Shown here piece after piece: positions 2,698-3,171 of a DNA stretch of 64,000 nt. The notes beneath the pieces are model-generated. The model did not search any database and was not told where the DNA came from. It saw only the letters and a list, made by a program, of their open reading frames with translations. The DNA comes from Shigella phage sb3. The stretch lies in the sequence record PQ666541, one strand, 5' to 3'. Position 1 is the stretch's first letter. Each line of letters starts with the position of its first letter. Made by a program: the position numbers and the translations under genes.

Positions 2698-3171
2698 TTA
2701 TTTGAATGATTTGACGTACTGAATAGAGCCTTTGCTATTCACGAAAGCGATTTTACCATTTTTGTTATACATGGTAGCAGTACGCTGATAACCATAAGTT
2801 TGTTTACCAGATTGATAACCAACTAATGCGAAATTATCTTCACCCATTTTATTCTGCTTAGCGCGGATACGTTCATGACCGTGTGCCATAAGAACCTTAG
2901 CGTCGCCAGTTGCAATGGATCTACGAGTTTTTTCATCTTCAACTGTATTAACAAAATCGTCAAATGAATCAAATTTAGCATGAGATTTATTATACAGTTT
3001 TCCATCTACTGCATAATTATATCCCTGTACATCCATCTCAACTTCTGTACCATCATCCAATACAGCAGTGATTTTTTGACCTTTTTTAAATTTCAAAAGA
3101 TCAGTAAAAGATTCAGCGATAATTTGAGAATTAATAGCTGCTTCAGCAATAAATTCTTTATACGTTTTCAT
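2698..3171 (-). CDS. internal-protein-like head protein with capsid-targeting sequence
   Basis: N-terminus MKTYKEFIAE followed by AA matches the T4 internal-protein capsid-targeting sequence and an IAE prohead-protease site. Confidence 0.7.
   Translation of the reverse strand: MKTYKEFIAEAAINSQIIAESFTDLLKFKKGQKITAVLDDGTEVEMDVQGYNYAVDGKLYNKSHAKFDSFDDFVNTVEDEKTRRSIATGDAKVLMAHGHERIRAKQNKMGEDNFALVGYQSGKQTYGYQRTATMYNKNGKIAFVNSKGSIQYVKSFK

Follow-up and report, generated by a model that had tools for sequence, protein, structure and literature searches.

In Shigella phage sb3 (sequence record PQ666541), a short gene lies immediately behind denV, the gene for endonuclease V, and is followed by a spacer that separates it from the next gene. 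An initial annotation, made from the DNA letters alone, described the gene as encoding a capsid-targeted internal-protein-like product and the spacer as unusually GC-rich and structured. This locus raises the question of what the gene encodes and what its product may do for the phage, and of what, if anything, the spacer holds. We addressed these points in a 64,000-nt stretch of the sb3 genome (hereafter, the window), whose numbering is used for all sb3 positions below.

Identity of the gene and architecture of its locus

In the list of open reading frames, the gene occupies positions 2698..3171 of the minus strand (stop codon, 2698-2700) and encodes 157 amino acids including a targeting leader; its product starts with MKTYKEFIAEAA. 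The stop codon of denV is found at 3181-3183 and the ATG of the gene at 3171, leaving a gap of exactly 9 nt (3172-3180, AGGAAACAT). The reading frame at 2698-3171, the start MKTYKEFIAE/AA and the distance of 9 nt from the denV stop had all been given correctly in the initial annotation, and the strand is the minus strand.

The product matched the Pfam family DUF7412 (3.1e-95, 317 bits versus a cut-off of 27), with residues 1-157 placed on profile positions 1-158 of 158, and it matched PHROG 3155, 'internal virion protein', over its full length (4.2e-101, 336.6 bits). It was 98.7% identical to the products of genes annotated as Ip4 or ipIV in phages Shfl2 and GiZh and 97.5% identical to that in ime09, and a translated search found a gene of T2 that was 98.7% identical to that of sb3. 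The sole structural neighbour among predicted viral structures was the BFVD entry Q38388, 'Ip4 [Enterobacteria phage K3]', at 97% identity. Compared with the Ip4 (ipIV) of K3, T2, Shfl2, ime09 and GiZh, the sb3 product is the same protein, with 97-99% identity over 157 residues, the same leader and the same place between e/denV and vs.8. T2 lacks denV, and its ip4 accordingly lies directly after e, whereas that of sb3 lies after denV; otherwise, there was no difference of substance.

The translated search covered 50,697 phage records, and ip4 was present in 470 of them. Identity was 95-99% in 306 records, which came from coliphages, Shigella phages and their relatives, and 60-80% in a further 160, mostly from T4-like phages of Klebsiella, Salmonella, Raoultella and Serratia. 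The depositors had named these homologues "Ip4", "ipIV: putative internal head protein" or "internal head protein".

Judged by its sequence, the gene at 2698-3171 is ip4 and belongs to a set of internal-protein genes that are interchangeable among the T-even phages. Because the Ip4/ipIV annotations, DUF7412 and PHROG 3155 exist, the family is already known, named and filed, and as a gene ip4 is ordinary and adds nothing new. The mature part, which had been reported as unrecognised, is therefore that of a member of an existing named family; the description of a capsid-targeted internal-protein-like gene abutting denV was supported by the family, the start region, the expression and processing signals and the locus. 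Full-text literature searches that combined Ip4 with phage terms returned nothing on the Ip4 protein, the sole mention being a negative screen in PMC12373910, and neither virion proteomics nor N-terminal sequencing of Ip4 was found in searchable papers. At least 10 internal proteins have been catalogued, a figure that PMC12373910 attributes to Repoila et al. 1994.

A 2.1-kb query around ip4 was 96-97% identical to many Tequatrovirus genomes. The order of genes on the minus strand is nudE, e, denV, ip4, the spacer, and the vs.8-like, vs.7-like and vs.6/GrcA-like genes, with the lysozyme gene e at 3657-4151 and denV, the 5' neighbour of ip4, at 3181..3597 (PHROG 1183, 7.6e-62; Pfam Pyr_excise). 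The variable segment reads e-denV-ip4-vs.8 in sb3, e-ipIII-ipII-denV-vs.8 in T4 and e-ip4-(disrupted vs.8 region), with no denV, in T2; no orthologue of IpII or IpIII was found in the 64-kb window. A comparison with the ipII/ipIII loci of related phages had been proposed at the outset, and for T4 it showed the same variable locus, although ip4 is located downstream of denV and ipII/ipIII upstream. In Klebsiella phage Roth16, the order is e, an Ip4 homologue, an IpIII homologue, the RNA-like element described below, a third Ip gene and vs.8. The comparison of these gene orders indicates that ip4 is one cassette of a variable array, e-[ip genes/denV]-RNA element-[ip]-vs.8.

The Roth16 array (296-1928 of its locus) contains three leader-bearing genes, the third of which encodes a 101-aa protein; the lysozyme stop codon directly abuts the ATG of the Ip4 homologue, and the RNA-like element is located between the second and third ip genes. 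In sb3, the C-terminus of the denV product reads ...YGKTIYI, compared with ...YGKAIYA in T4, and the 3' end of denV (3181-3205, minus strand) is a recombination joint, whose last codons (...TIYI and the stop) belong to the ip start cassette. One contig (L008) retains the same denV end and is missing ip4, and T2 retains ip4 and is missing denV.

The initial annotation had counted ip4 as the third gene of its kind. A six-frame scan of the 64 kb with the pattern M[KR][TS][YF]x[ED][FL][ILV]xE matched only ip4 and a gene at 8210..8773 (minus strand, leader MKTYAEFLTE), and a looser copy of the leader, MKSYAQFLNE, begins the gene at 8899-9372 (minus strand). There are two variable ip loci, and both of these genes are located in the second, next to the tRNA genes. 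They are mutually related since both belong to PHROG 2280, a family labelled 'unknown function' rather than internal protein in the PHROG library. In the same region, the GC content of the window reaches its maximum (up to 57%) in the stretch 9421-9766 (minus strand), just 3' of tRNA-Arg. No Rfam family matched this stretch at the gathering score, and presumably it is the site of the T4 small stable RNAs.

Packaging signals and the possible role of Ip4

The capsid targeting sequence MKTYKEFIAE, encoded by codons 1-10 (3142..3171, minus strand), is identical at 9/10 positions to that of T4 IpII and IpIII (MKTYQEFIAE), in agreement with its earlier description as near-perfect. M1, K2, F7 and E10 are nearly invariant within the Ip4 family, and the distant relatives found in an exhaustive profile search also begin in a leader-like manner, with MNFEQFLNE or MNFKDFLNE. 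The head protease of T4, gp21, cleaves according to the rule Leu/Ile-x-Glu. Residues 8-10 of the leader, I-A-E, fit this rule, and a motif scan revealed a second candidate site, again I-A-E, at codons 18-20 (3112..3120, minus strand), whose E20 is nearly invariant in the family. Cleavage after E20 would possibly yield a 137-aa mature protein of 15.5 kDa. Residues 11-20 were modelled at low confidence (pLDDT 53).

Signals for expression and processing were also present. A match to the T4 late-promoter consensus, TATAAATA, is located at 3206..3213 (minus strand), inside the 3' end of denV and 35 nt 5' of the ip4 ATG, and constitutes a putative promoter; a pattern search found 24 consensus sites in the 64-kb window versus 10.2 expected, and none of 100 shuffles reached 24. 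The ribosome-binding site AAGGAA (3176..3181, minus strand) is part of an ip start cassette, ATTTACATTTAAAGGAAACATATG, that overlaps the end of denV. An identical cassette precedes T4 ipII, and a near-identical one precedes T4 ipIII and T2 ip4. The window further contains a gene for the head maturation protease, a gp21 homologue (41550..42188, plus strand; PHROG 207, 8.1e-76), which is expected to remove the Ip4 leader, and this gene is flanked by those for scaffold proteins at 41125-41550 and 42219-43028 (PHROG 1049 and 237). The presence of the leader, the I-A-E site, the late-promoter box and a gene for the head protease makes it very probable, by analogy with T4, that Ip4 is packaged, trimmed and injected. 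In T4, the leader alone suffices for encapsidation of foreign proteins (PMC3012670).

The mature portion had been described as rich in Lys, Gly and aromatic residues. Among the 63 long reading frames of the window, its contents of Lys (11.6%, 89th percentile) and Gly (8.2%, 86th percentile) were indeed high, whereas that of aromatic residues (10.9%, 63rd percentile, with no Trp) was ordinary. Mature Ip4 is basic, with a pI of 9.1, a net charge of +4 to +5 and 12% acidic residues, and its richness in Lys is comparable to that of T4 IpII/III. The structure predicted from an alignment of 14 sequences is a compact folded alpha/beta domain of moderate confidence (pLDDT 78.6), and 53 positions are invariant across the family, including H64, H99, D47, D79, D90, E111 and D112, in blocks such as GHxRI and NKxGEDNF.

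The initial annotation had suggested remote-homology searches and structure prediction as a check, and these recognised the protein as DUF7412/PHROG 3155 and no relative outside this family. A word-indexed remote-homology search with mature Ip4 returned 14 clusters, every one of them DUF7412, and the exhaustive profile search, which covered 1.84 billion representatives, returned seven proteins, all of the Ip4 family or fragments of it except for one weak repeat match. One distant relative (P0015) is encoded on a 2.8-kb contig, in which the gene context was uninformative. A sequence search of the PDB gave nothing credible, and the fold search found no neighbour outside the family, matching only the Ip4 of K3.

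Ip4 resembles T4 IpII and IpIII in its leader, ribosome-binding cassette, general locus, Lys-rich basic mature part and expected processing by gp21. The alignment with IpIII is confined to the leader, and in tblastn that with IpII extends weakly beyond it (33% identity, E 3e-4); apart from this weak extension, mature Ip4 has no similarity in sequence or fold to Ip1, Ip2 or Ip3 beyond the leader. T4 IpI*, the inhibitor of the GmrSD of E. coli CT596, belongs to the same class of small proteins, which are targeted by a leader, processed and injected, and it has its own fold (PMC3012670). Its gene is found in the ip locus of the tRNA region, where sb3 has 8210-8773 and 8899-9372, and the IpI* chain was absent among the fold-search matches listed for Ip4.

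We propose, at somewhat better than even confidence for the explanation as a whole, that ip4 encodes an internal protein that is packaged, cleaved and injected and most likely blocks one specific host defence protein. Late transcription would start from the TATAAATA box inside denV, probably together with read-through from denV. The MKTYKEFIAE leader would carry Ip4 into the scaffolding core of the prohead, where the gp21 homologue would cleave after Glu10 and possibly once more after Glu20. The basic mature protein (about 15.5-16.5 kDa) would then stay with the DNA in the head and be injected into the next host, where it would most likely bind and block one specific defence protein, as T4 Ip1, Ip2 and Ip3 do. 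Our best guess for the target would be a restriction nuclease that attacks glucosyl-hydroxymethylcytosine DNA.

The role of an inhibitor is a guess by analogy; since T4 Ip1, Ip2 and Ip3 act in this manner, an injected specific inhibitor is nevertheless the best-supported mechanism. Each of these three proteins inhibits one GmrSD-type restriction enzyme, with no cross-protection, and the targets of IpII and IpIII are the GmrSD of ECOR21 and ECOR17, respectively (PMC12373910). When ip4-10 were screened against GmrSD variants in a 2025 study, no reproducible inhibition was observed (PMC12373910, Supplementary Fig. 9), and T2, which lacks Ip1-3, is restricted by the GmrSD of ECOR17 and ECOR21 (PMC12373910). 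Because T2 carries ip4 and is restricted nonetheless, Ip4 does not block these two enzymes at its natural dose. The target of Ip4 is not among the GmrSD variants tested so far. Ip4 may instead disarm a host defence other than GmrSD, which would extend the idea of the injected inhibitor to a new class of targets.

We considered three other explanations and rated each of them below a specific inhibitor. Ip4 might be packaged and injected without having a specific protein target, as a general basic DNA-associated head protein that serves charge neutralisation, condensation or ejection. The pI and Lys content of the mature protein are consistent with such a role, as are the contacts between internal-protein lysines and DNA phosphates seen in T4 heads by solid-state NMR (PMC3012670) and the lack of a target for Ip4 in the GmrSD screens. 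However, the net charge is only slightly positive and acidic residues are frequent, and a compact alpha/beta model with 53 invariant positions exceeds what charge neutralisation needs. The gene is moreover dispensable and swapped among close relatives, T4 having none and T2 and sb3 having it, which better fits an accessory of an arms race, and the three T4 internal proteins once assigned a general role all proved to be specific inhibitors (PMC12373910). We therefore regard a general head protein as unlikely. Less likely still is an enzymatic role, in which injected Ip4 would cleave a component of the host or modify it covalently, in the manner of the packaged ADP-ribosyltransferase Alt of T4, although the invariant His, Asp, Glu and Lys residues in the blocks named above, and a size exceeding that of Ip1 and Ip2, would suit an enzyme.

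The leader might also be a relic, with Ip4 being made but left unpackaged or uncleaved and acting in the producing cell only. Against this, conservation extends to the leader, to both Glu sites and to the start cassette in relatives that share only 60-70% identity, far more distant relatives still have a leader-like start, and the late-promoter box is present; we consider a relic highly improbable. Ip4 is an orphan of the arms race between internal proteins and restriction enzymes, and sb3 and T2 are natural carriers of its gene.

A conserved RNA-like element in the spacer

The spacer 3' of ip4 (2593-2697) has a GC content of 44.8%, compared with 36.0% for the window, which places it at the 92nd percentile of 105-nt windows; the tRNA region reaches 57%. 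Its single-sequence folding energy was equal to that of shuffles (z = -0.06). The description of the spacer as unusually GC-rich and structured was hence overstated, the spacer being only moderately GC-rich and folding like its shuffles; a structured feature was found instead in the form of a conserved element with covarying stems. No intrinsic terminator was found in the spacer, and sigma-70-like promoter sites were no commoner there than in shuffles.

The element is RNA-like, comprises about 85 nt (2598-2682, minus strand) and was matched by a covariance model at 96.2 bits. P1, a variable hairpin (GGGAA...UUCCC in sb3), is accompanied by the closing helix P0 and by a near-invariant core, ACCUGUAAUAAGGUCGAGCCCAAGUGCGGUAAUGGG, in which two small hairpins lie; the core shared across phages, likewise near-invariant and with two small hairpins, is ACCUGUAAUAAGGUCGAGCnnAAGnGCGGUAAnGG. 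Besides the GGGAA/UUCCC of sb3, P1 occurs as GGGAG/CUCCC, GGGG/CCCC, GGAAC/GUUCC, GAGUG/CACUC, AAAGG/CCUUU and AAAGCU/AGCUUU.

The covariance model was built from 13 sequences, from which the structure itself had also been derived, and it gave 47 matches in 45 sources and a single match in the window. In a MAFFT-only alignment of the 13 sequences, 91.2% of the positions concerned were paired, compared with 82.3% after shuffling, and the covariation score was 0.338, compared with 0.169 for shuffled alignments and at most 0.115 for slid registers. In the larger covariance-model alignment, which is fitted to the model, 89.6% were paired versus 72.7% after shuffling (reached by 0/500 shuffles), and covariation was 0.485 versus 0.159, with slid registers at most 0.155. 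All five P1 pairs change on both sides in the latter alignment, and two pairs of P0 are paired in 42/42 sequences, as CG, GC, AU or UA plus a single GU at one of them. P2 and P3 hardly vary, and the support from covariation comes from P1 and P0; in one contig (L019), P1 is broken. When single sequences were searched by rule for the P1 stem, the outcome did not differ significantly from that in shuffles, since stems of 5-6 bp are common; only the alignment-based counts carry weight.

A sensitive DNA search found the core in 1,032 phage records, including T4-like phages of Klebsiella, Salmonella and Yersinia and rV5-like phages, in which it is 95% identical over 43 nt. The element is located at 4355-4439 of the T4 locus (L002), 3478-3562 of the T2 locus (L003), 2472-2549 of the rV5 locus (L004), 1473-1543 of the PsgM04F locus (L005) and 1444-1545 of the Roth16 locus (L006). 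A search with a metagenomic variant added Klebsiella phage Pylas (70 kb) and the 150-kb coliphages DE16 and phiWec190, with no annotated feature at that place, and pattern scans of viral contigs added Pseudomonas phage PsgM04F and contigs of 46-50 kb. The element thus occurs in T4-like, rV5-like, Pylas-like, Phapecoctavirus-like and Pseudomonas phages, and conservation of the core is about 90-95% between the T4-like, rV5-like, Pylas-like and Pseudomonas phages. It is unannotated in the rV5-like and many other records, and elsewhere it lies under hypothetical-protein annotations, as in T4. A scan of 185,579 bacterial and archaeal genomes for the exact core found no copy.

At 9/9 loci examined outside the T4-like phages, which represent about five independent lineages, a tRNA cluster contains or adjoins the element and shares its strand; in T4-like phages, the element lies between the denV/ip genes and vs.8 and not in the tRNA cluster. 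In their position, the non-T4 copies resemble the small stable RNAs of the T4 tRNA region, species 1 and 2 (rnaD/rnaC), which are structured phage RNAs with no known function that accompany tRNA clusters. The covariance model matches the window only once, in the spacer, and does not match the surroundings of the tRNA genes; the element is therefore not homologous to these RNAs.

Two further arrangements were observed. Two contigs of 172-178 kb (L033, 5091-5167; L035, 9104-9181) contain a second, divergent tandem copy about 100 nt past the first, with the core CCUGUAAUAAGGyCAGyCCGCGrCGGUAA, and this copy is the source of the compensatory changes seen in P2 and P3. In five contigs of 46-70 kb (L026, L028, L030, L034 and L036), long inverted repeats, GUGCUCUUAUCGUUGUGAC ... 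GUCACAACACACAACAGGUAAGAGCAC, enclose the element and are found again between neighbouring units and tRNA genes. Of these repeats, the 5' one appears to resemble the boxA antitermination sequence.

No Rfam match, either at E<=1 or at the gathering score, fell on the element at the sb3, rV5, PsgM04F and Roth16 loci. Several candidate identities were rejected: a tRNA or tRNA fragment, since ARAGORN finds none there; any Rfam family, since there was no match; a homologue of the GC-rich region by the tRNA genes, in which the covariance model has no match; and a coding sequence, on account of the stop codon and frame shift relative to vs.8 in sb3. A likeness by eye to twister and pistol ribozymes and to the tRNA-Tyr anticodon loop was dropped, as no tool supported it. 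A literature search for the core sequence returned nothing, and one for vs.8/denV returned only papers on dengue.

The vs.8 start and the meaning of the element

The gene that follows the spacer encodes a vs.8-like P-loop protein (2005..2544, minus strand), whose probable start is the ATG at 2544 (MRTFLTG...) and not that at 2592. PHROG 1488 aligns only from residue 19 of the 195-aa vs.8-like reading frame, and its profile begins at MRTFLTG. In T4, vs.8 (219 aa) is annotated from 26 nt after denV, and the RNA-like element underlies this annotated start. The first 32 residues of the T4 annotation map by tblastn to the sb3 spacer with 30/32 identical, and in sb3 this segment has a stop codon and a frame that differs from the rest of vs.8.

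These data allow a reading in which 2598-2682 is not an RNA element but belongs, as the T4 annotation has it, to the coding sequence of vs.8, of which it would be the degenerate 5' end. The position of the T4 annotation directly past denV and the near-identity of the translated segment between T4 and sb3 are what this reading predicts. It does not accommodate the stop codon and the shifted frame in sb3, nor the beginning of the PHROG family profile at MRTFLTG. The insert of the hairpin, moreover, ranges from 13 to 46 nt among phages, with lengths that are not multiples of three, rV5-like, Pylas-like and Pseudomonas phages have the same core in or adjoining their tRNA clusters, in DNA that bears no annotation, and covariation is seen in both the P1 and P0 stems. 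We therefore consider a coding origin very unlikely. Because the extension overlaps the RNA-like element, contains a stop codon and a frameshift in sb3 and is absent from PHROG 1488, sequence comparison suggests that the annotation of T4 vs.8 probably starts too far upstream, by about 40 codons; the region concerned is 4290-4413 of the T4 locus (L002) and 2545-2592 of sb3.

Another motif is contained in the leader of the vs.8-like gene, GCGCCAUGGAAUGGCCC, a GCCA/UGGC hairpin with a GGA loop (2563..2579, minus strand), just 5' of the ribosome-binding site of that gene. It is kept in 4/4 T4-like sequence types, is absent from other lineages and is found upstream of an ip gene in Klebsiella phages. 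The motif might be a translational operator.

Returning to the RNA-like element, we put at about even the chance that these 85 or so nucleotides represent a new class of functional structured RNA, present across unrelated families of virulent enterobacterial and Pseudomonas phages and hidden in T4 under a mis-set vs.8 start. The element could be a stable small RNA, perhaps processed together with tRNAs, a decoy, or a cis-acting signal for processing or antitermination; it could also be, in part, a conserved recombination landmark that flanks ip cassettes. With its covarying stems, a core shared across phage families, a link to tRNA clusters and absence from Rfam and bacterial genomes, it is a more useful lead than ip4, and by implication T4 vs.8 is probably annotated from the wrong start.
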